Positions 35,123-64,000 of a stretch of 64,000 bases of DNA are shown one piece after another. The notes under the pieces are model-generated. The model was not told where the DNA came from. It was given only the letters and a program-made list of their open reading frames with translations, and did not search any database. Numbering within the stretch: the stretch's first letter is position 1; each line of letters begins with the position of its first letter. The position numbers and the translations under genes are program-made. The DNA is from a virus, in the IMG/VR virus record IMGVR_UViG_3300022843_000001, positions 96,001 through 160,000 of that record; one strand, given 5' to 3'.

Positions 35123-35474
35123 GCAATTCTTGCTCGGTTGTTGTGGAATCTATATCAATTTGCATTTTGTCGTCATTGTCTCGAATAACTTTTCTATCGG
35201 ATTCTGCTTGTGTTGCGTCTTGGCTCGGTATCTGCTTCATTATGATTGCATCATGTGGTGCAAAGTCCTTCTCTCGTTTTGCTCTGCGTAACTCATGTGC
35301 AACCTCCTTCGCTAAAGGTAAATCAGTTACCACCGCGTCACCTACAATTCTCCACGCACCACGAAAGACCTTATCAGGGACTGACACAACTTCAAGCCAT
35401 GTTGCACCTTCAGGTATTGAGGACTGCTTTGAGCAAATCGCAACGGTGTTATCTTCTTGTTGATATGCGTACAT
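35109..35474 (-). CDS. Putative tail-fibre-associated/assembly protein
   Basis: FRGAWR and HELRRAKREKDFAPHD pattern common just downstream of marine phage fibres. Confidence 0.55.
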   Translation of the reverse strand: MYAYQQEDNTVAICSKQSSIPEGATWLEVVSVPDKVFRGAWRIVGDAVVTDLPLAKEVAHELRRAKREKDFAPHDAIIMKQIPSQDATQAESDRKVIRDNDDKMQIDIDSTTTEQELLDLL

Positions 35475-35941
35475 TAATGCTTCCTCAAATAGTTAATAGC
35501 CTTCTCAAGAAGCCCTATATCATCTTTAAAATGGCCTAAAGCAAAGTTACAGCTTATACATAACAAGCCTCTAACCTCACCTGTTATGTGGTCATGGTCT
35601 ACGTTTAAGCTCTTAGTGCAGTCATCTTCATGTACATTACATATTAAACATGAGTAATCCTGACTTACCAGCATACTCGTATAGTCATCGTAGGTTATGC
35701 CATAGTTTTTCTTTAACCTAGTATTGGCTACTTGCCTTGGGTTAGCTTTATACCATGCCTTAGCCCTGCTGCTGACCTTATCTTTTCTACTGTCGTCATA
35801 GGCGATATACTGATAGTTGCGACAAGGAATGCATATATTCCTATATCCATGCTTTGATCCCTTATTAATAACAAAGCCTTTAAGATCTTCCGCAGTATGA
35901 GCCGACTTATCACAAGAAGGGCAGGTTCTTAGTGCTTCCAT
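35474..35941 (-). mobile_element. Endonuclease VII-like HNH endonuclease
   Basis: LNVDHDHITGEVRGLLCISCN; start moved to ATG 35941 behind a GGAGG SD and next to the fibre stop. Confidence 0.82.
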
Positions 35942-35942
35942 A

Positions 35943-38900
35943 TTATTCTTTACCTCCGAAAATGTTAAGGCATAACTGAAAAGGATCGCTAGGAGAAAAA
36001 CCACTATTCCAGTGATTTAAAATAATAGACCTAGTTTCTGGACTTTGTGTACCTGTAACAGAGGGTGAGTTATTGTCTTCCAACCTATTCGCCTCACAGG
36101 AGTAAGAGTAAGTAGCAGTAAAAGGTACTTCGAAGATAACTTGGTATTTCCCAGTTCCCAAATCAACAACATCAGACACATTATAACTAGCGAGAATCAA
36201 CGGTGGATTCTGAGTACCATCAAAGTTGACCCAAGCGGTTGCAACACCAGTGTTCTTAATCTCACCATGAACTGTCAAGTCACCATGCGCTTCAACATTA
36301 TTAAACCGTTGCTTGGCAACAGGCATATTGACGAGTGTAGAGTTGATTACATCACCTTCGCTGTCAGTTCTAAACTCAGCTAAGTATGTCCGTTCAATAG
36401 CGGTGTCACTAGAGTTGTACATTCTACCAGCGTCGATTAAGTAGTAGTCTGACGGGAGGATTGTGTTAAATTCTAGTTCTGCTATTCCAGTGTATGTAGC
36501 GGCTCCATTATTAGCGGTGTTGTTAATTCTGTGGTAAATATACGCAGTGGTGTTACCTGCAGTAGTGTATAGATCGCCCCACAACTTTACCCCATTTCCA
36601 GAGTAATCGGACGAGGTGAAAGTAGAATCAATAGCTGTCCAAGTAAATCCGTCATTAGAGCCTTCAATAGTAAACCTTTTAGGTAATCTAGTATTGTCTG
36701 CAGGAGCACGTAATCTCCATGATTTAAGCACCCTAGCTTCAGTACCTTTATACTGAAGTTGCGAGTTTGTTGTAGACGTGCCTAACCATAGGTCCGAACT
36801 GCCAACAACTTGATCATTAGCGTTTTTATTAAACGCATTCCAAGCTGGGTACAGACTAACACTAGCGCTGGCAGCACCCGTAGAACTCTCGTAACCAAAG
36901 TGCCTAGCGGTAGTTCTCAATGATGCATCTAACGGACTAACAACACCCCATTTATCAGCGTCATTACGAGTAATACCTTCTAGTGGTCTGTTCTCAGTTA
37001 CACCATACGAACCACCTAAGTCTTTATAGATGTAGTAGTGCTTGCTCTCATGTCCAGCACCTAATGCATACGTTACACCAGAACCTACGTTCTCTTTGCT
37101 GTCCACTTGACCATTCGCATCAAAACCTTGAGCAAATGATATGAGTGTATTCTGAGCGATTGAGAGAGTATCTGCCGTAGTTGGGTAGGTGTAGTCACTG
37201 TTGGTATACGTGTTTGTACCAGCACCTCCTGTTGATGACTCTGCATAAGCCATGAAGAGGTATTCATCGTTTAGGTCGTTACCATTACCATTATCATCTC
37301 CAATATAAAATCCATTATCATCTAATCTAGTTCTAGTAGTTTGTGACACTTGCGCTCCTGAGTTTTCTAAACGCAAATAATTATCTAGTATCTGAGAATC
37401 TACTGTTTCCCAGCTACCAATATTAGTTAAATTTTTAACCATTACAAAAGCAGGTTTAAAACCACAGTCTACATAATTACCAGCAGCACCAGTGCCAATG
37501 TACTTGCCTATTTTTGATACGTTGGGGACTGATGTGAAGTGGTAGGATACATAATTTTTATCAGCTTGATTACTGGCTAAATTTGAACCAATGCTTACAG
37601 TCAATTCGTTTACAAGATAGTTTACAGCGGCAATGTTGATAACAGTACCCGTTGTATTAAGGATTATGGTGTTGTGAGAATCACCTAAAAGTTTACTCTG
37701 CACTAACCAATCAAACCCTGTGTCTCGTCCTTTAGTAATAGTTAAATCAGGCTCAACACCTAAATGATGAGGTATTTCATGTCCTGCTGCACCATCACCT
37801 TCGTAACCAACAATACTGAAACCAAGGTCGGGGTTGTAGTGTGATGTATACGCTTTGTTGCGGTTAGTTGTACCAGTAACTTTCTTAGTTGTCTGCCATG
37901 ACCATGAAGCGTAAGTTTCTGCGTTCCCATTTATTACATCTGACGTTCCCACTGTAAAACCAGTGGGGGTGAAACTTTGGTGGGTTGTTGCAACAGTACC
38001 TTCTTCGTCGGTTGTATCACTTCGCAATCTAACTGAGTTACCCCTAATTGTGTCAAATAGGTGATGACTATCAGCACTACGACTTTTAGCCCAAACAAGC
38101 CCACCAAAGTCACCAGTGGACATATCAAGACCAGTGTTAATAGCTCGACCATCTGCACCATCACCTGTGTATATTGCAGCACTAAAACCTGATCTTTCTG
38201 ATTTGCCTTGAGTTACTGCTTCTTGGTTCAAAGTTGAATTACGAGCAATAGTATTAGATACAGCAGTATCTTTATCATCAATTTGTGTCTGAGTATAACC
38301 ACTAACTATGTCTCCCCATAAAGAACCTGAGTAAGCTTGCATTTTATTACTAACACTATTGAAATATAGTGCTCCTATAACTAAAGCGTCACCATCATTA
38401 TCTAATGTAGGATCTGAAGATTTTGCTCCTAAATACCTATCATCAAAGTTATCGTAAGCCAATTCTGCAGCATCTCTAGCATTTTCTGCTAATGATCGTT
38501 CATAAGTTGCTGTTACTACATCAGCATTAGTAGCTACTACATCAGCATTAGTAGCTGATAAGTCTAAAGCAGTATCGATTGTGTCTTGATGTGTAAGTAC
38601 GAGATAAGCAGCTACAGCTATTCGATCTAAACCTGTCTGCACTTTGTCTGCTTCTGATAATATAACGTTGTTATTAGTTGTTACAACATCATTGTTAGTT
38701 GCCACAACATCAGCAGCAGTATCAATAGTATCTTGGTTAGTACTTACTAAGTCATTTGCAACAGCTGTTCTGTCTAAACCTGTCTGGTTTTTATCTGCTT
38801 CAACAAGTATGACGTTATTATTAGTAGTAACAACATCAGCTGCTGTATCTATCGTATCTTGGTTTGTTTCAACTAAGTCAGAAGCCGTATCGATTGTGTC

Positions 38901-39131
38901 TTGATTAGTAGCAACTAAATCTGCTGCAGTGTCTATAGTATCTTGATTAGTAGCAACTAAATTAGAAGAAGTTTGTTCTGCATTATCAGATATGTTATCA
39001 ATTTCTGACTCTAATCTAGTAATTTCTGTAAGTTTATCAGCTACTGACTTTACAATATCATAACCAGTAGTAGCCAATTCTCTGTCTATAGCAACTTTAT
39101 TTGATGTTAGCGAACTAAATTTTCTAGCCAT
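35943..39131 (-). CDS. Tail fibre/appendage protein (mosaic, 1062 aa)
   Basis: N-terminal heptad repeats, DRYLGAKSSDPTLDNDG motif, YTGDG repeats, discoidin/F5-8-like segment (FTIEGSNDG), C-terminal AWVNFDG domain. Confidence 0.85.
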   Translation of the reverse strand: MARKFSSLTSNKVAIDRELATTGYDIVKSVADKLTEITRLESEIDNISDNAEQTSSNLVATNQDTIDTAADLVATNQDTIDTASDLVETNQDTIDTAADVVTTNNNVILVEADKNQTGLDRTAVANDLVSTNQDTIDTAADVVATNNDVVTTNNNVILSEADKVQTGLDRIAVAAYLVLTHQDTIDTALDLSATNADVVATNADVVTATYERSLAENARDAAELAYDNFDDRYLGAKSSDPTLDNDGDALVIGALYFNSVSNKMQAYSGSLWGDIVSGYTQTQIDDKDTAVSNTIARNSTLNQEAVTQGKSERSGFSAAIYTGDGADGRAINTGLDMSTGDFGGLVWAKSRSADSHHLFDTIRGNSVRLRSDTTDEEGTVATTHQSFTPTGFTVGTSDVINGNAETYASWSWQTTKKVTGTTNRNKAYTSHYNPDLGFSIVGYEGDGAAGHEIPHHLGVEPDLTITKGRDTGFDWLVQSKLLGDSHNTIILNTTGTVINIAAVNYLVNELTVSIGSNLASNQADKNYVSYHFTSVPNVSKIGKYIGTGAAGNYVDCGFKPAFVMVKNLTNIGSWETVDSQILDNYLRLENSGAQVSQTTRTRLDDNGFYIGDDNGNGNDLNDEYLFMAYAESSTGGAGTNTYTNSDYTYPTTADTLSIAQNTLISFAQGFDANGQVDSKENVGSGVTYALGAGHESKHYYIYKDLGGSYGVTENRPLEGITRNDADKWGVVSPLDASLRTTARHFGYESSTGAASASVSLYPAWNAFNKNANDQVVGSSDLWLGTSTTNSQLQYKGTEARVLKSWRLRAPADNTRLPKRFTIEGSNDGFTWTAIDSTFTSSDYSGNGVKLWGDLYTTAGNTTAYIYHRINNTANNGAATYTGIAELEFNTILPSDYYLIDAGRMYNSSDTAIERTYLAEFRTDSEGDVINSTLVNMPVAKQRFNNVEAHGDLTVHGEIKNTGVATAWVNFDGTQNPPLILASYNVSDVVDLGTGKYQVIFEVPFTATYSYSCEANRLEDNNSPSVTGTQSPETRSIILNHWNSGFSPSDPFQLCLNIFGGKE
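38490..38965. repeat. Imperfect 7/14-codon repeats (ATNQDTIDTAADLV) in the fibre stalk
   Basis: Repeated translated units NQDTIDT and TNNNVI...EADK.QTGLDR. Confidence 0.85.
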
Positions 39132-39748
39132 TATACAAAACCTCTTTGATCAAATTTATAAGATTCCATATCGTCAGGAAGCAGTAAACCTTGGTCTACT
39201 ACTCTTTTACAGCTTTGGTCAAACCTTATATAGTGTGTATTATTTTCTGCTTTTATGTCAGAAGATATAGTTGAATTACCTCTATAGCCTATGTAATGCA
39301 ACAAAGCTTCTAGTAGTTGTGGAGGTAATGCTAAACTATCAGTAGTGTAATTAACAAAAGGAATAGACCCTCTATATATAATACTTAATTTTTCATCTTG
39401 TGCTACATTAGGAACTTCTACTGTGTTATACGTGGGAGTCATTATACCTAGAGGATCTTTTTCATCATTTACAGAAACTAGTTCTCCTTGTTCGTCATAA
39501 CACTCTATAACTACAAGGAAATTAGCAGGATTGTTTATACTAACATCTGTGTCGGTACCGTCTAGAGTATACGTTGTTTTACCTGTTTGAAGAGTAATAA
39601 TAGCTTCTTCAGCTTTAAGTGTGAACCTTTTATGAAGTTCCAACATACCAAGATTTATAAATCCAATTACTGCTTCTTCATTATCTTTTACAGATAACTG
39701 CCTCAGCTCTGAACTTTTAGCTAGACTTATTACTTGGCTGACTAACAT
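39131..39748 (-). CDS. N4 gp67-like head-tail adaptor
   Basis: SELRQLS, FINLGMLELHKRF, LEALLHYIGYR; position right after the N4-type terminase. Confidence 0.75.
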   Translation of the reverse strand: MLVSQVISLAKSSELRQLSVKDNEEAVIGFINLGMLELHKRFTLKAEEAIITLQTGKTTYTLDGTDTDVSINNPANFLVVIECYDEQGELVSVNDEKDPLGIMTPTYNTVEVPNVAQDEKLSIIYRGSIPFVNYTTDSLALPPQLLEALLHYIGYRGNSTISSDIKAENNTHYIRFDQSCKRVVDQGLLLPDDMESYKFDQRGFV

Positions 39749-39789
39749 TTGTTAACCCTTAAATTTTCATTATACTACCATACTATACA

Positions 39790-41412
39790 CTAAAATATAG
39801 TACTGTTATGTAGATTATCCAAATCATCCTCGTCTGGAAAGGTAGCATACGTACCTTCTTCATTTTGTACATACTGTGTATTAGTTTCTTCACTAGGTTC
39901 AAATGGGCTTAGTTCTGATAGCATAGCAAAAGTATCAGCTACATCATCATGTTTAGATTTAAACCCTTCTTTTGTAACAAACCTTAGTTCTTCTAAACAC
40001 TCATTCATGTATTTAGATCCTTTCATTTCTTCAGGAAGTAATACTTTTTTAGCTATTATCTTAGGAAGAAAAAGCATAAATCTAGATATTTTCTTTTTAG
40101 TAGGTCTTATACCTTCTTTAACGTTATCAAAACCTTTAGCTAGATTAAAGAATACACTTTTTCTTATCATCTCAGCTTTAATCCAAGCTATAAAACCACC
40201 TTGTTGACCACTTACCTCAATTCCAACTTCTAAAGGCTTGTACATAGCTACGTACTTAAACAGATCTGCTAAAGTTTTATCCATCAGTTGTTGTGCAATT
40301 TTACCGTCTACTAAAAGCCAATCTCCGTTATTGTTATAAGCCCACACAGAAATTACGCTGTAGTCAGCTGTTTTTTCTTCACTAGTAGCAAAGTCAGTTG
40401 TTATGTACCAGTTGTAGTTGCCTTTGTTTTTTAGAACATCTTTTCTGCTGTACCAAACTAAATCGTCACTGTTAACTAGTCTGTCTTCGTCACTTGTTAT
40501 TCTAAGCATAAGCTCTTGGTCAAATGCAGCTAACTCGCCACTTTCTTTAAGACTGTGGTACTCGTGGTTAATAAAAGAAAAAGGAAATCTATCTTCCCAC
40601 GCACCAACAAATTCTTCTTCTGTACACGGAAATTTTTCACATAGAGGATAAAGCTTTGTTAGCCATGATTTAGACTCAGCTGCTTCGTATAGAGGATCTT
40701 GCTTATTAAACGGTGTACCTGTCCAATTGATCATACGTTTTTTAGGATGTAAGCACTGTCTTGCTGCTCTATACAGAACTTTTTTAATGTCTTCTACAAT
40801 AGTTGCAGATTCTGCGTTTTTGTCTGACATGAGATCGTCTAGCCCTAGCCATGTAGGACGCTTACCATATTTCTTAAATCCACGAACACCTGTGTTAGCA
40901 CCAAAACCTTTAACGAAAAACATTTTACCGTCAGCGTTTTGAAACTCCCATTCAGAATCTATAAACTTTGTGTAAGGAACATATTTCTGTAAAAATTGTG
41001 AATGGTCCCATCTGTACTGCAGGTTTTGCCTCATAGACTTAACACCGTTGTCTATTGTGTCAGCTACGTACATGGCTACGTCAACTTCACCAAAACCGTC
41101 AACTTCACCGTAAACAGCTATGTACAAAAACATGTACTCATGTATTACTGAAGTTTTAGCACCACCACGAAAACAGACAAACAAGTTCTGCCTAGATTCA
41201 GTTATTGTGTCCAACATGTCATAGTGAAACAGAGGTGAAGTATTTTCTTCACCCATAGATCCGTTAACTAGTTTAATAAATGCTATAAACTTTAAAGCAA
41301 ATCTAGTAGGTACGTAATCTTTAGAAAATTTGGAGTAATCAATTTCTTTCAGCTTTTCTTCAAGATCTTTTTTAGCTTCTTCTACTATTACTTCTGTCAT
41401 TAAAATTTCCAA
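39790..41412 (-). CDS. Terminase large subunit, N4 gp68 type
   Basis: YVPTRFALKFIAFIKLVNG, CFRGGAKTS, LDDLMSD, GTPFN, DFATS, HDDVAD. Confidence 0.9.
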   Translation of the reverse strand: MEILMTEVIVEEAKKDLEEKLKEIDYSKFSKDYVPTRFALKFIAFIKLVNGSMGEENTSPLFHYDMLDTITESRQNLFVCFRGGAKTSVIHEYMFLYIAVYGEVDGFGEVDVAMYVADTIDNGVKSMRQNLQYRWDHSQFLQKYVPYTKFIDSEWEFQNADGKMFFVKGFGANTGVRGFKKYGKRPTWLGLDDLMSDKNAESATIVEDIKKVLYRAARQCLHPKKRMINWTGTPFNKQDPLYEAAESKSWLTKLYPLCEKFPCTEEEFVGAWEDRFPFSFINHEYHSLKESGELAAFDQELMLRITSDEDRLVNSDDLVWYSRKDVLKNKGNYNWYITTDFATSEEKTADYSVISVWAYNNNGDWLLVDGKIAQQLMDKTLADLFKYVAMYKPLEVGIEVSGQQGGFIAWIKAEMIRKSVFFNLAKGFDNVKEGIRPTKKKISRFMLFLPKIIAKKVLLPEEMKGSKYMNECLEELRFVTKEGFKSKHDDVADTFAMLSELSPFEPSEETNTQYVQNEEGTYATFPDEDDLDNLHNSTIF

Positions 41413-42272
41413 GGCTTATCAGGTGTAGAAGATTTACCAGTATTTGGTATATCCCATACGTCTTCTTCAGGATCAGGTACTTCTACAAAAGTATTACTTT
41501 TACTTGGTATAGGTTTATCCCTGATTTCTTCAGTAAACTCAGCTTCTTCAATATCATCTGTTTCTATTTCTTTACTTACTATTTTAGATTCAATAATTGT
41601 TTTAATAGGTACACCAGCTTGAATACTTTGTTGTTCTTTTATAATTAATTTTTCTGTAGCTTCTCTTAAAGACGCTATAGCAGATTTAGCACCATCCTCA
41701 ACTTGTATACTGATAACATTGTCATCAGAAGGTTTAAGCTCTTTAATTAATGTTTCACCTGCCTTTTGTCTAACGATTTCTGATTTAGCATTACGCATTA
41801 ACTCAGCTTGGTTAGTTATTGATTCGTACAGCAGATGTCTAAAAATTAGTTGTACAGGGGTAGTAGCTACTTTTCGTATTTCACTAACTAAAGCAGTAGC
41901 GTTATATCTAGATGCTTCGCCTGTTATTGCACTTTTAGTTTGGCCTCTGTCAGTTCTAGCTTTAAGTCTTTCTGGAAAAACAAGAATATAAGACTCAGTT
42001 AAACTGTTACCAGATTCAACTAAAGAAAAAAACTTAACAGCACACAAGTACCCTCTTGAAGTGTATTTGCTGTTACTGCTCAGTATATTTAAATGGTCCC
42101 TGTAAACGTCTAAAAATTCTTCACCGTAGTCAGGATTTTGAGCTAGCTTGTTAAGCTCATACACAGTATTCTCATCAATCATGTGTTTTTGTTTAGCAGA
42201 CAGCTGAGACTGTAAAACTTTTAAATCAAGTTTAGCTTGTTTGGATTGTTCTGATGTTACTGTTGTTCCCAT
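41400..42272 (-). CDS. N4 gp69-like protein (putative terminase small subunit)
   Basis: YLCAVKF, FPERL, QAELMRNAKSEIVRQKA; adjacent to the large subunit. Confidence 0.75.
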   Translation of the reverse strand: MGTTVTSEQSKQAKLDLKVLQSQLSAKQKHMIDENTVYELNKLAQNPDYGEEFLDVYRDHLNILSSNSKYTSRGYLCAVKFFSLVESGNSLTESYILVFPERLKARTDRGQTKSAITGEASRYNATALVSEIRKVATTPVQLIFRHLLYESITNQAELMRNAKSEIVRQKAGETLIKELKPSDDNVISIQVEDGAKSAIASLREATEKLIIKEQQSIQAGVPIKTIIESKIVSKEIETDDIEEAEFTEEIRDKPIPSKSNTFVEVPDPEEDVWDIPNTGKSSTPDKPWKF

Positions 42273-45261: not shown

Positions 45262-45978
45262 TTAATCTACGTACTCTTGTATTTTGTACGGAAGTTTAAA
45301 AAATAATATCCATTCATTTCTATGAGCTACTGCATCTTTTAACTTTACAAATCTGTCAGACGCTACTAACTTTCCTTCATGTTTTAGTACAGAAGACCAT
45401 TTTCCTGTTTTTTTAACTAGTGTTATGCCTACGTACCCACTAGAACTATTTTTATACACTCTTTTGTTAACTGCTTGTTCTTGTCTTGTAGCCCACGTAC
45501 AGTTGCCGGGGTTATAACCACCATTGTTGTCAATACGCTCTATAGTCAGTTTTTCTTTGTACCCACTGTTTTTAGCCCACTCTATAAATGTCTCCATTGA
45601 GTTTGCCCATTCAGAACACATATCTATTCCTCTATTACCATAGTCAATATAGCTTTTATTTTTTGGGTTAGTACATCTGTGAACCATCGCGTACCAGACT
45701 GCTGATATTTTGCTTGTTGAAAGTCCGTGAGTAGTTCTTACTTTTGATACAGCTTCTTTAGCAAAGCAACCACAAGATGTAGATAGACCTGATTTTAAAT
45801 TACTACCTCTTATAGTTTTTTCATTACCACACTGACATTCACATAACCAGTAATGAGTGTTCTTTACATCTTCTGCTCTACTAACAACAGTTAGTCTTGA
45901 GTATACGTTTCCTACAATGTCTTTAGTGTTTACCATTACGAATCTCCTGTTAAAGCAGTAGCATAACATACTAAACAA
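45262..45978 (-). mobile_element. HNH-AP2 type homing endonuclease
   Basis: WLCECQCG...SCGC, YGNRGI, TIERIDNNGGYNPGNCTWAT, C-terminal AP2-like SGYVGI. Confidence 0.82.
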
Positions 45979-46259
45979 TGTTTATCACTACATTTACTAA
46001 AGTCTAATGCCACATACCCCTTAACTTATACAAATATTCTTTAGTAGACACTATTAAATATTATAGTGCCGTAGGGCTAAGAGCTAGGTGTGTCAAGGGG
46101 TACCTACCTTCTGCTTATATACTCTATGGTCCTTCGTTCCGCTTTGCTACTAACAGCTAGTTTTCCTCAACTACTTTATCGTAAACAAAGTGCCTTATCA
46201 TACCCGTTAACAACCACTACATTACTAAACGTAAATTTAGAAGACATTCCAAACTCCTA

Positions 46260-46440
46260 CACAAATAAAATTATATTATATATTAAAATAATTTTTTATT
46301 AAATATTAAAATAAAATTTATAAAAAATTTAAATAGGGTCGGAACAAATACTAAATTTTTAATATAACTTCTAAAGCAGTATATAGCATTCCGCTATATG
46401 TACCGCTGGGTACCCCCCGCATTCCGTGGATGGGACCCAT
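46260..46440. other. AT-rich tract plus GC-rich hairpin block at the strand switch (candidate genome terminus/origin)
   Basis: About 80 nt almost only A/T, then an ATATAGC-ATTCC-GCTATAT hairpin and GGGTACCCCCC; genes diverge on either side. Confidence 0.5.
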
Positions 46441-46462
46441 TCAAACCAAAAGGTAAATAACC

Positions 46463-46846
46463 ATGAACGTAATCAAAACTGTAGTAAAAGACATCTACAC
46501 AATCACAGGCACACTGCTAGGAGCAACAGGTGAGATAGTAACCACACTATCAGGTGAGGCAGCTAACGCTACTAAGTTAGTGACATCAGCTATCACTGCA
46601 ACACCGGGTGTCATACGTGAGGTAATCAACGCACCTATCACTGCGACAGCTGCTTACCAAGCAGAGGACAAGGGCATCTCATACGACGAAGCAGAGGCAG
46701 CACTAATAGCTATGCTACCAAGCACTGCTAGCCAAGCAGTGAAGGACTCTATGATAGCAGCAGGTAGGCTATCAGCGTCTCTCATGAAGGAAGAGGAAGC
46801 TGCGGAAGCTAAGGTAGCTACTTCAGTCACTACAACTGTAGGTTAG
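46463..46846 (+). CDS. First early protein (Ala/Thr-rich)
   Basis: ORF with AAAAGG SD; GC-richer codons than its neighbours. Confidence 0.7.
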   Translation: MNVIKTVVKDIYTITGTLLGATGEIVTTLSGEAANATKLVTSAITATPGVIREVINAPITATAAYQAEDKGISYDEAEAALIAMLPSTASQAVKDSMIAAGRLSASLMKEEEAAEAKVATSVTTTVG

Positions 46847-47099
46847 TACACACTCACACTAACTACACTCACCAGCTCTAGGCAAGCTATATAATACTGC
46901 CTACTTACCACCATGCATACTGTGTACATGCAGTATGTATGCTAGTAAGTGTTACGTACTACTCAGTACGGCTTACAAACAGGAGAAATGTGATGAAAGA
47001 ATCCACCAAGCAAACTATCGTTGAAACTGTGCTGTATGTAGCATTAATGGTAGCAATACCATGTATGTTTATTCTTTAGGACACTTTAGGAGTATTATT

Positions 47100-47378
47100 A
47101 TGTCAGTAAAATCTAAGTACACTCATGGGTGCGGTGTGTGTAGTCTTATAAGTAACTGTGGGTGTGCAGCAGTATTACAAGTACCTGATTTAACAGGTTA
47201 TAAATACTCTCATGAGTATGATTCTTGTGACTATCATCAGATTGTTAAACATGATATTTATGACAATCGTGATCTTGGTGTGGATAGTTTTGTTGAAACT
47301 ATTTTAGTGACTTATAAAGCTTCTTTAGTGCTATCTGAAGATAGATTAAATGCTTATTTAGCTGATGATAGTAGATAG
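47100..47378 (+). CDS. Hypothetical Cys-rich early protein
   Basis: ATG 47100 behind GGAG; CGVC...C...C. Confidence 0.55.
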   Translation: MSVKSKYTHGCGVCSLISNCGCAAVLQVPDLTGYKYSHEYDSCDYHQIVKHDIYDNRDLGVDSFVETILVTYKASLVLSEDRLNAYLADDSR

Positions 47379-47417
47379 GTTTTAAGTTAGTTTATTTAGA
47401 TAGGTGTTGCTACCACA

Positions 47418-47735
47418 TTGAGTAGCAGTCTATTAATGGAGAATATTATGAACACATTATTAATAAACAGTACACTTACTGTTTTAAGTATTGACGAAAT
47501 AGTGGCGAATCATGCTCAAGCAGTATCTTTAGTATTAGTTGGTTTGTATGACATGCATGTTCAGGTAACTAAGGAAAATAACTCTTTATTCTTTAAGTAC
47601 ATGACAGATCAAGAGATGGATTACGCATTGAGTGATGTTGATGCTGGTACTTCAAGCCAGTTTAATTACCACAACCCTAATTGGCACTTTGTATCATCAT
47701 TACGAATAGCTATCAGAGATAGTTTAGAAGGTTAA
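47418..47735 (+). CDS. Hypothetical early protein
   Basis: ORF; true start probably 47448 behind GGAG. Confidence 0.55.
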   Translation: MSSSLLMENIMNTLLINSTLTVLSIDEIVANHAQAVSLVLVGLYDMHVQVTKENNSLFFKYMTDQEMDYALSDVDAGTSSQFNYHNPNWHFVSSLRIAIRDSLEG

Positions 47736-47833
47736 ATAATGACCACCTAGCTCTACGGAAAGGGTTAGGAAATGTTAAGGAGCAGTACAGTACCGTGTAT
47801 ACATTCGTATACATGTCATGTTTGGAGAACATT

Positions 47834-49840
47834 ATGAAAAACTTACAACCAGCAGTGTCAGAAAAAGCAGCAATAGATCACACAAATGACAGCTTGAAAA
47901 CTGCTATGTATTTGATGCTTAGCAACTCTGATTTGGTTACAAAGACAGCATTTTACGCTAATGAAGAGTTATACGATGATTGGACAGCTATGGTACACGA
48001 ATACGTGTTTGATACTTTATTACCGAACAGACTGAAGCATGTAATAGCAGCAGTAACTAGCGTAACAAACAGTTGCGATAAGGTATTGCTGAGCACTTTT
48101 GTAGGCATGTTGAAGTATAAAAACATGGTTGGGCCATTAAAGGTTAAGCAAACTGAGGGACAGCTTAAACGTTTTAATATACTGGTGGCTGAATTAGTTA
48201 CTAGTATACTAATTGACGAAGGCTTGCTTGAAGTACAAGTAGAAAAAGTTACAACAGCATTAGGTGTTAGAACACATAAGTATGTGACGTTTACTAAACA
48301 TAATGTCAAAGATGTGTATAAAGGCATTATGGATAAAGCTGGTGTTGTGCTGCAGAAAGATATTGCTGGGCGTAAGCCTAATAATGCGCAGAAAACTTGT
48401 CTTGCATTGTTATCTAGTCAGGCGTATGAACTTCATACTGCTCTTAGTCAGGCAGTACTGCACAAGTTTTATACACTTAAACCTGATTGGAACAAGACTC
48501 ACGATAAGAATGGTAATGAAATTAAATGGGTTGGTGCTTATAAACGTAAGCATTACAAAGATATGGCAGCGGAAGTAATGGAACTGCAAGATTGCATTTA
48601 CTATATTGCGCATAAGTTTGACAATCGTTTACGTGTCGGTCCTGAGGCAAATAGGCTTGAAGGTATTAATCTTCATGGAAAGTCTTTTGAAACTGGACAG
48701 CATTGTGCTGCAAACTATAAAGATATAAATGATCAGGCTTATAGAATGATTGAGCAGCAGTTGTATTCAGCTAGGCATAACCGTGTGACTGTTCAGCAAG
48801 CAGTAGATAATTTGTCATCTAATGACTATTTACCTGTTACTGAGGACATTATGCTTGCAGCTACTAGCCAGAAGGAAATGGCTAACTTGCACACTGCTAA
48901 GAAAGCATTAAAGTCAATGCAACGACACGCTGAAGGCAAGCCTTGCGGTAATTTATTCGGCTGGGACTTCACGTTCTCAGGTGGCATTATGGCAGGTCTG
49001 TTGTTCAAGAGTCCTGAGTTCTTACAGTCAGGTAATCTTTATGGTGAGGATAAGGTAACTGATGCACATGCTAGGTTTGGTGAGTTATTTGGTCTTAGTG
49101 GTATTGATAGAGATACTGTTAAGGATATGCAGCAACCAGTTATGCATGGTGGTCACATTTCAGGTTTGCTGAAAGTACTAGCAGATCATGGATTTGAGAT
49201 GTCAGAAGCAGAGGTAAAGAGAGGTCTTACAGGTGTATACGGTGAATGTGTTGGTAATGTAAATATCATTGCTGAGTGGGGTCAAGCGTTAGCATGCAGT
49301 GAGTATGCAACAATGACTTGGACTATGCCTGATAACATGATTTCAGCACACAAAGCTTACCAAAGTGGTATTGCTGTTGAGAATTATGTTGCATCAGCTA
49401 CTAGTAAGCGTGGTTATACTCATAATGTACAGCTTAGTAATTTGCCTTATGAGACTACTAATACTGGTAAACCTTTGTATGCTAAGGAGATGACTATTGG
49501 TCATACTAACTATAAAGTTACTACTCATCTGAGAGGATTATTTGCCGATATTCTTCATAGTGTAGATGCTTATGTGTTACGTAGAGTAGTGAAAGCTGTT
49601 ACTGATCAGGGCTATACTATATTGGTTAAGCATGACAACTTTTATATTCAACCAGCAGCTTATCCTACTTTAATTAAAGCAGCTAAGAAGGTGTTTAGAG
49701 AGTTGCTTCATAGTAATTTGCTGCACAATATACTCACTGAAATTAGTGAACGGTCACATAAAGAATCTAATGTGCCAGAAATAGTTTATGGCGAAGCTCA
49801 AGATTTGATTGAAGAAAGCCATAATTTCTTACTACCATAG
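47834..49840 (+). CDS. Single-chain T7/N4-RNAPII-family RNA polymerase (divergent)
   Basis: HKFDNRLR, motif A GWDFTFSG, motif B RDTVKDMQQPVMHGG, LHSVDAYVLR, motif C VKHDNF; ATG 47834 behind GGAG. Confidence 0.85.
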   Translation: MKNLQPAVSEKAAIDHTNDSLKTAMYLMLSNSDLVTKTAFYANEELYDDWTAMVHEYVFDTLLPNRLKHVIAAVTSVTNSCDKVLLSTFVGMLKYKNMVGPLKVKQTEGQLKRFNILVAELVTSILIDEGLLEVQVEKVTTALGVRTHKYVTFTKHNVKDVYKGIMDKAGVVLQKDIAGRKPNNAQKTCLALLSSQAYELHTALSQAVLHKFYTLKPDWNKTHDKNGNEIKWVGAYKRKHYKDMAAEVMELQDCIYYIAHKFDNRLRVGPEANRLEGINLHGKSFETGQHCAANYKDINDQAYRMIEQQLYSARHNRVTVQQAVDNLSSNDYLPVTEDIMLAATSQKEMANLHTAKKALKSMQRHAEGKPCGNLFGWDFTFSGGIMAGLLFKSPEFLQSGNLYGEDKVTDAHARFGELFGLSGIDRDTVKDMQQPVMHGGHISGLLKVLADHGFEMSEAEVKRGLTGVYGECVGNVNIIAEWGQALACSEYATMTWTMPDNMISAHKAYQSGIAVENYVASATSKRGYTHNVQLSNLPYETTNTGKPLYAKEMTIGHTNYKVTTHLRGLFADILHSVDAYVLRRVVKAVTDQGYTILVKHDNFYIQPAAYPTLIKAAKKVFRELLHSNLLHNILTEISERSHKESNVPEIVYGEAQDLIEESHNFLLP

Positions 49841-62500: not shown

Positions 62501-63284
62501 TATATACCCTGACGTATGGAAAAAAGAGCTAAAGATAGAAACTTTAGACTATTTACCTTTTCGTAACTTAATGCATTTTAAACATTTTGTATCAAATATT
62601 ACACAAATTGAAGATAACAAATGTGATGTTTCTTATTCTGATGCGTTATCTGATTTAATGCTGGGAAAATACGAAAAAGATGATAGTAGATATGAAAGCG
62701 TTAGAAACTTAGTGAGAAAAAATCTATTAAAACGTGGACTTATTACTCAAGAAATTTATGAAAACTTTAAATACTCTACTGATGGTATTGTAGTTGACTA
62801 TGATGTAGGAAAATATGCAGCTGGTGAACCTGATTGTGTTATTACACCTTCAGTACAATATGTAGATTTTTTTCATGAACTTTATATAAATATATCTTAT
62901 AGATATGATATTAGTGATATTGATATTTCTAAAAATATTAATAAATTGTTGGCTACTATCGAAGAACTAGAGCGTCAACATATATTCATTAAAATTACTT
63001 TAATACTAGCTTGTAGAGAAATTAACAACAAAAACAATTTCCTGTCTGTAATACCTTTATTTTCTCATAGAGAATTTAAAACAGTAGAAATTATGTCTTC
63101 AGTTTTAAATAATAGACTGTTGAGAAAATTCTTTTTTGCTATATTTGAAAATAAGTATGGTGATGAATTATCAGATTTTTATGGAAGAGTACTAAAAGTA
63201 TCTGACTCTTTATCATTAAATGATGAATTTAATGAAATAGAATTCTTTACTGAAATTAAAGACACTGTTGAAAGGAGATTATAA
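62484..63284 (+). CDS. Partner of the AAA+ ATPase (degenerate vWA-like)
   Basis: Overlaps the ATPase; DYDVGKYAAGEPDC, ELYINISY, TIEELE pattern. Confidence 0.6.
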   Translation: MKTLPNIYPDVWKKELKIETLDYLPFRNLMHFKHFVSNITQIEDNKCDVSYSDALSDLMLGKYEKDDSRYESVRNLVRKNLLKRGLITQEIYENFKYSTDGIVVDYDVGKYAAGEPDCVITPSVQYVDFFHELYINISYRYDISDIDISKNINKLLATIEELERQHIFIKITLILACREINNKNNFLSVIPLFSHREFKTVEIMSSVLNNRLLRKFFFAIFENKYGDELSDFYGRVLKVSDSLSLNDEFNEIEFFTEIKDTVERRL

Positions 63285-64000
63285 TGAGTACTATTGATAT
63301 GCTTGAAAGTTATGTAAAAAGCAAAACTTCATCTTTATCAAATTTTCCTATTATTGTTAAAAAAGGTATAAACACTATATCTGGTGAAGCTCCTTTTAAA
63401 CTAAAATTAGCTATTGTTCTTTCTGAACTAGTTACTTTATCTTCACACCTAAGAAAACCTATAGTGTTGTTTGACGGCACATTAGTTCCTACTAATGCTA
63501 TTACGTTTGCTTTGTGTGGTTCTGGCGAAGGTAAAGATAAAGCAGTAAATGCTGTAAGAAAATCTTTAAAAGAAGCTTATTATAAACTAGAAGAAAAACG
63601 TAAAGAGTATGCTGAAGAAAAAGCTAAGAATGACGCTATAATACATGGTGAGTCACGAGAAGATTGGCAAAAATATTACTCAGCACCTAAGCCTTTACAA
63701 GCTGGTCTTGGCACTGTTGAAGGGCTAACAAGCCATTTTGCTAGTATAGAGTCAAACCCTTTAGGTGCAGGAAGTATCATGAGCACTGAAATTGGTAGTG
63801 AGTTACAAACTAATGGATCTATTATGGAAATTTTTAAAGTAATTTCTGTTGCTTATGATCTAGGTGCTATAGCAGCAAAAATAATTAAATCTTCAGAAAA
63901 TCAAACAGCTTCAATATTAAGTTTACCTGTAAACGCTTTACTGTTTGGCTCACAAGAAGCTTTACTATTTAATAATGATGTAAAATCAAAGTTTAAGCTT
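63284..64000 (+). CDS. N4 gp43-like primase-family P-loop protein, partial (runs off the window)
   Basis: VPTNAITFALCGSGEGKD, GTVEGL, TEIGSEL, AYDLG, NALLFGS parallel N4 gp43 N-terminal motifs. Confidence 0.7.
   Translation, partial: MSTIDMLESYVKSKTSSLSNFPIIVKKGINTISGEAPFKLKLAIVLSELVTLSSHLRKPIVLFDGTLVPTNAITFALCGSGEGKDKAVNAVRKSLKEAYYKLEEKRKEYAEEKAKNDAIIHGESREDWQKYYSAPKPLQAGLGTVEGLTSHFASIESNPLGAGSIMSTEIGSELQTNGSIMEIFKVISVAYDLGAIAAKIIKSSENQTASILSLPVNALLFGSQEALLFNNDVKSKFKL

Follow-up and report, generated by a model that had tools for sequence, protein, structure and literature searches.

A predicted single-chain T7-family RNA polymerase of an N4-like phage, with histidine at two nucleotide-pocket positions held by tyrosine in T7 RNA polymerase

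The stretch of DNA analysed here (the window) is 64,000 nt long and covers positions 96,001 to 160,000 of the IMG/VR virus record IMGVR_UViG_3300022843_000001; coordinates are those of the window unless marked as genome positions. At 47834-49840 on the plus strand, an open reading frame (ORF) of 668 codons and a stop runs without interruption and encodes a protein, P0001, which sequence profiles and a predicted structure assign to the single-chain RNA polymerases (RNAPs) of the T7 family, and in which two tyrosines of the T7 nucleotide pocket are replaced by histidine. A GGAGAA box lies 5 nt before the ATG at 47834, and this ATG is taken as the start codon because homologues at 54-64% identity align over their full length beginning at residue 1. 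An in-frame GTG at 47795 was considered as the start and rejected on the same N-termini. The gene and the functional positions within it are listed below with their T7 RNAP equivalents; here and throughout, conservation counts refer to the 68 full-length relatives that form the family alignment and profile.

47834..49840, plus strand: predicted single-chain T7-family RNAP gene (P0001), 668 amino acids; uninterrupted ORF, AlphaFold2 model, structural and profile matches.
48620..48634, plus strand: DNRLR, residues 263-267, counterpart of T7 D421-x-R-G-R425 by alignment (D263, R265 and R267 for T7 D421, R423 and R425); R267 invariant, R265 in 62 of 68.
48728..48733, plus strand: residues 299/300, the site at which N4 RNAPII is split into gp15 and gp16; gp15 alignment and gp16 superposition.
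48965..48982, plus strand: motif A, DFTFSG, residues 378-383, with catalytic Asp378 (T7 D537) and Gly383 at the steric-gate position (T7 G542), both in 68 of 68.
49061..49069, plus strand: D410-A-H412, with His412 at the position of T7 Y571 and N4 gp16 Y115; alignments.
49109..49153, plus strand: motif B (O helix), RDTVKDMQQPVMHGG, residues 426-440, with R426 (T7 R627), K430 (K631), Q434 (M635), H438 (Y639) and G439 (G640); alignments and model.
49556..49567, plus strand: HSVD, residues 575-578, with His575 (T7 H784; 68 of 68) and Asp578 (T7 D787).
49631..49636, plus strand: motif C, HD, His600-Asp601 (T7 H811-D812); alignments.

Single-sequence searches were weak, and neither phmmer against the PDB nor megablast against phage records returned a match. 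The Pfam RNA_pol model (PF00940) matches at 22.2 bits against a cutoff of 22.0, a borderline hit confined to the motif C region, and PHROG families annotated as RNA polymerase match at 7e-11 and 1e-6. An exhaustive HMMER search recovered 135 polymerase-family clusters at 50% identity, of which 80 score below 1e-10; lengths are mostly 640-720 amino acids. Against the PDB, the 68-member profile matches T7 RNAP at 2e-18, the large subunit of N4 RNAPII (6dt7_B) at 9e-16, mitochondrial RNAPs at ~1e-10, and the small subunit of N4 RNAPII (6dt7_A) at 3e-6.

The AlphaFold2 model computed from the 68-member alignment (predicted local distance difference test score, pLDDT, 92.8; predicted template modelling score 0.91) adopts the right-hand polymerase fold and is superposable on T7 RNAP. 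The closest match is to T7 RNAP elongation complexes, with model residues 159-666 lying on T7 266-882 (Z 30.2, root-mean-square deviation 4.1 Å, 458 residues), followed by yeast mitochondrial RNAP over the whole length (Z 28.5, 599 residues aligned) and N4 RNAPII gp16, on which model residues 300-667 superpose with gp16 4-404 (Z 24.0, root-mean-square deviation 3.7 Å, 316 of 404 residues). The N4 mini-vRNAP (the minimal virion RNAP) matches at Z about 17, and family A DNA polymerases at Z about 13 and below. Foldseek against the PDB also places T7 RNAP at E 2e-16, and the BFVD matches are phage RNA polymerases throughout. The original prediction, made from the sequence alone, had described a one-chain, 668-residue polymerase like N4 RNAPII, which these matches bear out, and had seen no T7-style N-terminal domain. 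The latter holds in part: the region is shortened, but a truncated domain is present, since whole-chain superposition on T7 initiation and intermediate complexes (model 17-667 on T7 73-883, 588 residues aligned) places model residues 17-160 on T7 ~73-266. Winged-helix-like matches for residues 13-156 are weak and below the trusted level (Z about 5), and residues 1-300 folded alone by AlphaFold2 from a 6-sequence alignment gave a pLDDT of 44, too poor for structure searching. Taken together, the reading frame, the profiles and the model confirm the predicted product of 47834-49840 as a real, intact T7-family single-chain RNAP of an N4-like phage.

Residue equivalences were drawn from hhalign alignments to T7 RNAP (probability 98%, E 3e-13) and to N4 gp16 (probability 98%, E 2e-13), together with a HMMER profile alignment and a MAFFT alignment of the core; the HMMER alignment to T7 does not extend over O-helix residues 426-439, and the hhalign, HMMER and MAFFT alignments are concordant at every position that each covers. 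The catalytic aspartates of motifs A and C are in place, as are the counterparts of R627, K631, H784 and H811, in agreement with what had been read from the sequence at first. The T/DxxGR motif is present as D263-N-R265-L-R267, so that the DNRLR noted earlier in place of DxRGR stands; its glycine position is variable in the family (Gly in 19 relatives, Leu in 18, and others), while both arginines are kept. D378, G383, K430, G439 and H575 are each found in 68 of 68 relatives, and D601 in 67 of 68. The motif B consensus R-x3-K-x7-Y-G is retained at R426, K430 and G439, and its Tyr is replaced, throughout the clade described below, by His438, encoded by CAT at 49145-49147. Through hhalign, His438 corresponds to T7 Y639 and to the Tyr of ...TALYG in N4 gp16 (Tyr146), which upholds the earlier assignment of Gln to the M635 position and His to the Y639 position. 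In the model, helix 426-437 terminates at H438-G439, like the O helix of T7 RNAP. Of the 68 relatives, 65 have His at position 438, two have Asn and one has Ala, and position 434 is Gln, Thr or Met. The fingers are compact, with 14 residues between the Y571 and R627 positions versus 56 in T7.

Seen against T7 RNAP (PF00940; PDB 1CEZ, 1MSW, 1S76), the protein therefore shares the right-hand fold (Z 25-30 over 458-588 residues), motifs A and C, R627, K631, G640, H784 and the DxxGR arginines, and differs in length (215 residues less), in its truncated N-terminal and thumb regions, and in the replacements Y639 to His, Y571 to His and M635 to Gln. The loss of the canonical Tyr and of the DxxGR glycine, and the borderline Pfam score, are what might be expected of an inactive polymerase relic or a protein with a non-catalytic role. 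Such an origin is extremely improbable, as the residues that bind metal and triphosphate are all invariant, the model is very confident, and the family is large (the 135 clusters) and kept in cultured lytic phages.

Related DNA and RNA polymerases are described as having Tyr or Phe at the Y639 position (PMC4223216), and T7 Y571 as lying near the catalytic pocket and as implicated in NTP stabilisation (PMC13757076). The distribution of histidine at both positions was followed in a maximum-likelihood tree built on the core from motif A to motif C, comprising 112 sequences with T7 RNAP as the outgroup, and leaving aside five near-duplicates of P0001 or P0003 and fragments missing the core. The sequences with His form one clade of 84 tree rows (support of 97 in the Shimodaira-Hasegawa-like approximate likelihood ratio test, SH-aLRT), 78 of which have His at position 438; the substitution is thus not peculiar to this gene. 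The exceptions are Ala in one well-supported sub-clade of four members (P0065, P0098, P0108, P0142) and Asn in two single lineages (P0036, P0046), which provide natural tests of the need for the side chain. The sister group of 27 rows, which includes N4 gp16, has Tyr in 25 and Phe in 2. A column-by-column comparison of the two groups reveals a second, concerted swap: at position 412, 92% of the His clade carries His, and all 27 sister-group members have Tyr, as do T7 (Y571) and gp16 (Y115). Mean identity within the His clade is about 24%. His438 together with His412 is, on these alignments, a character of a large uncharacterised clade and not a one-off.

The clade extends to cultured phages. 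The proteins annotated as 'RNA polymerase' in the Alteromonas phages vB_AmeP_PT11-V19 (WAK44711) and vB_AmeP-R22Y are distant relatives of the same family and clade, with 29-30% identity over 93% of the length; they come from the same genome type, with a virion RNAP of ~2080-2100 amino acids (PMC11705849), and have been annotated but not analysed. In the kept core columns of the tree, the RNAP of the lytic phage PT11-V19 (PMC11705849) is identical to P0017 and has His at position 438; of the two phages, this is the one whose residue there was read. The R22Y paper notes two polymerase genes, with no analysis and no mention of the His substitutions. Given a large, old clade that includes a cultured lytic phage, His438 is, as far as sequence comparison can tell, a selected, working solution. 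The substitution is also specific to the 668-residue enzyme, because the virion RNAP of the same N4-like phage keeps Tyr in motif B.

The N4 enzyme that this protein most resembles in layout, RNAPII (gp15, RNAP1, and gp16, RNAP2; PDB 6DT7), is a heterodimer, whereas here a single ORF reads through residues 299/300, the split point, uninterrupted by stop codon or frameshift. The two systems are alike in total size (668 amino acids versus 673 for gp15 plus gp16), in collinearity, in the superposition of palm and fingers, in the shortened N-terminal region and in the presence of a virion RNAP alongside. The C-terminus of gp15 (residue 269) aligns to polymerase residue 299, with gp15 162-269 corresponding to residues 188-299, and no gp15 sequence match was found in the sequence alignment for the first 187 residues. 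They differ in chain number, in the residues at gp16 Tyr146 and Tyr115, both His here, in the lack of a recognised gp2 homologue here, and in pairwise similarity, BLASTP against N4 gp15 and gp16 giving only noise-level motif matches, though collinear ones. Exact collinearity with a junction at 299/300 would also be expected if the single chain had arisen by secondary fusion of gp15-like and gp16-like genes. A fusion is nevertheless very unlikely, since single chains are found in all 84 His-clade members, in several Tyr-clade members (among them P0118, P0124 and P0141; 615-737 amino acids) and in the T7 outgroup, and heterodimers are just 24 among more than 500 RNAPII homologues (Lenneman and Rothman-Denes, PMC4496689). 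Because the single-chain form is common to the His clade, several Tyr-clade members and T7, the most parsimonious place for the split is inside the Tyr clade, and the unsplit chain is probably the ancestral state.

The phage to which the gene belongs has to be separated from the record in which it was deposited. The source record is a 198,785-bp IMG/VR entry with a 29-bp terminal overlap, and contains two complete morphogenesis sets, with two terminases, two portals and two capsid genes. T4-like genes (major head protein, portal, sheath, large terminase, baseplate, gp43-type polymerase and topoisomerase II) occupy genome positions 1 to ~131 kb, and N4-like genes (terminase, portal, capsid protein, virion RNAP, primase and Pol I) occupy genome 135-198 kb, the N4-like terminase being 60-62% identical to those of Alteromonas schitoviruses. 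The junction is marked by a direct repeat at genome 131326-134236 (window 35326-38236) and genome 195436-198343 (L006:11237-14144), whose copies share 75-96% identity and an exact stretch of 344 bp. Tetranucleotide correlation is 0.96-0.98 inside each part and 0.79-0.85 between the parts, and GC content is 0.37-0.39 in one part versus 0.33-0.34 in the other. The repeat is where contigs break in 4 salt-lake metagenome runs; the depth of the repeat node is approximately the sum of both sides in 3 of these 4, and the depth ratio across the junction varies from ~2 to ~9 among the four. Runs X1 and X2 gave no contigs at 95% or above over window 37340-42000, and no inference is drawn from them. The polymerase relatives are located on N4-like contigs of at most about 70 kb. 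Because of the repeat junction, the composition, the read depth and the contig type of the relatives, the record is chimeric, combining a T4-like myovirus of about 135 kb with an N4-like podovirus of about 64 kb. The same observations reject an assignment of the polymerase to a 199-kb hybrid phage.

The stretch common to the two phages (window 35474-39131 and L006:11854-14196) carries an endonuclease VII gene and the C-terminal two-thirds of a tail-fibre gene at 75-96% nucleotide identity, which suggests that a receptor-binding module has been exchanged between two unrelated phages, probably of the same host. Another oversized IMG/VR record with a family polymerase (L025 / G001; 205,076 bp) has two N4-like large terminase genes ~107 kb apart, and probably consists of two concatenated phages of ~100 kb.

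The N4-like phage encodes its own virion RNAP, a 2103-residue ORF at genome 172691-179002 on the minus strand (L004:692-7003), which matches phrog_2206 at 9e-21 and is 29.5% identical over 99% of its length to 2083-residue proteins of PT11-V19 and R22Y. The virion RNAP of N4 itself is larger, at about 3500 amino acids. A virion RNAP homologue is found in 3 of 3 records, each at least 61% complete, that carry a family polymerase. The N4-like primase lies at genome 159284-160699 and 161289-161972 (window 63284-64000 onward) as two blocks that match the PT11-V19 primase with ~590 bp between them, an arrangement that suggests an inserted element or a split gene.

The polymerase gene lies 6 kb from the N4-like terminase, with a divergent region between them, and the rightward operon to which it belongs begins ~1.4 kb upstream. 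Three to four small ORFs (two of 105 amino acids) separate the first ORF of this operon from the polymerase gene, and the order terminase, divergent region, small ORFs and RNAP is kept in relatives. The divergent region, which separates the terminase module from the early operon, has an HNH endonuclease gene at its edge (45262-45978, minus strand); a TARA relative lacks this gene here. The features ahead of the operon are as follows.

46370..46441, plus strand: conserved non-coding element with a variable-stem hairpin, ~20-90 nt upstream of the operon's first ORF; three-phage alignment.
46463..46846, plus strand: first ORF of the rightward operon, 127 amino acids, conserved in relatives.

In N4, the first early gene is gp1. 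The 127-residue ORF has a weak N-terminal resemblance to N4 gp1 that is not significant by hhalign, and tblastn with N4 gp1 and gp2 gave no significant match. The upstream element is strongly conserved in this phage, in the TARA relative and in PT11-V19, the polymerases of which are just 30-64% identical, and has a core, GTACCCCCC...ATGGGACCCATT, with a hairpin before it that varies in stem sequence from phage to phage. The element is present once in the window against 0 copies expected by chance, and the other two copies lie at L008:9100-9175 and L001:2010-2070. No Rfam match was found in 45900-47900, a degenerate pattern of the element missed relatives owing to spacing, and a scan for perfect hairpins gave no clear enrichment in the early region. 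Because N4 has hairpin early promoters, the element is, by analogy, a candidate early promoter for the virion RNAP, or a candidate 5' leader.

Directly read here were the fold and the residue equivalences with their conservation, along with how the clade is structured, the accompanying virion RNAP and where the gene lies in the genome; which template the 668-residue polymerase uses, when it is expressed and how it selects sugars are inferred. By analogy with N4, the injected virion RNAP would transcribe the rightward early operon behind the hairpin element, and the 668-residue polymerase made from this operon would then transcribe the middle genes. Asp378 and Asp601 would support the standard two-metal chemistry, with Arg426 and Lys430 of the O helix acting on the triphosphate. 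His412 and His438 take the places of the NTP-pocket tyrosines (T7 Y571 and Y639), with Gln or Thr at the T7 M635 position, a character fixed across the clade, and the imidazole of His438 would assume the stacking and the polar sensing of the 2'-OH by Tyr639, so that the preference for ribonucleotides (rNTPs) is retained. An rNTP-using enzyme fits the invariant catalytic residues, Gly383 and His575, as well as the persistence of His over the clade and in a cultured lytic phage. The polymerase is accordingly read, from its sequence relationships and the N4 analogy, as a working transcriptase of middle genes, with His438 and His412 standing in for the tyrosine hydroxyls, and the gene probably encodes a functional DNA-dependent RNAP that serves as the unsplit counterpart of N4 RNAPII for middle genes in an N4-like podovirus of ~64 kb.

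Several observations weigh against this reading. T7 Y639F is reported to lose discrimination between rNTPs and deoxyribonucleotides (dNTPs), a result that PMC4223216 cites from Sousa and Padilla, so that any loss of the Tyr hydroxyl could alter selectivity. The Ala sub-clade and the two Asn members indicate that the side chain at 438 is not strictly required. A cofactor of the gp2 or Drc type was not recognised, the small neighbouring ORFs having no informative PHROG match; single-stranded DNA-binding cofactors and gp1 are known to differ between genera (PMC7145618).

In a different account, the His438/His412 pocket relaxes or changes sugar selectivity toward dNTPs or 2'-modified NTPs, making mixed or DNA products, or primer synthesis, possible. 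Y639 is the main rNTP/dNTP discriminator of T7 RNAP and is otherwise Tyr or Phe in family-A-type polymerases (PMC4223216), and two further pocket positions of the protein are off the RNAP consensus. A resemblance to DNA polymerases can also be traced in a DxH...R...K...Y...YG pattern, in which a local alignment pairs H412, R426, K430, Q434 and H438 with H506, R518, K522, Y526 and Y530 of T7 DNA polymerase; the hhalign probability is 0.8%, which is not significant, and the pairing serves as a lead only. Family A DNA polymerases (T7 gp5, Klenow) share the palm and fingers fold (Z 12-13), but have a Glu steric gate where Gly is invariant here, Tyr or Phe at the Q434 position and Tyr at the H438 position. 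The invariant steric-gate Gly and the invariant equivalent of H784 are both typical of RNA polymerases, and His, unlike the Phe of Y639F, is able to hydrogen-bond the 2'-OH. Fixation of His over a clade of such low mean identity points to a specific retained function and not to a loss of selectivity, and the N4-like genome encodes its own primase and Pol I. Changed use of dNTPs or 2'-modified NTPs by this pocket is therefore considered unlikely, and altered sugar selectivity in general, which the original prediction had raised, possible but fairly doubtful. The primase-like role proposed with it is judged unlikely and unnecessary, because those functions are already encoded by the phage. A related and slightly less doubtful proposal is that the clade has rebuilt its nucleotide pocket, with two His residues (T7 571 and 639) and a polar residue at 635, and thereby recognises the 2' group in a naturally different way in a minimal 668-residue enzyme; if so, tolerance of dNTPs or 2'-modified NTPs, or a selectivity dependent on pH or metal, might be found.

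No mention of a natural or engineered Y639H was found in the literature, the family being annotated as 'RNA polymerase' in PT11-V19. Engineered changes at the Y639 position underlie enzymes for making 2'-modified RNA. This position is a textbook determinant of ribose selection, and a natural clade of at least 84 sequence clusters has His there and at a second pocket position. The clade would thus offer a comparative system for alternative ribose recognition and a source of candidate minimal polymerases for modified nucleotides, and the unsplit form of N4 RNAPII documented here inside N4-like phages bears on the origin of the heterodimer.

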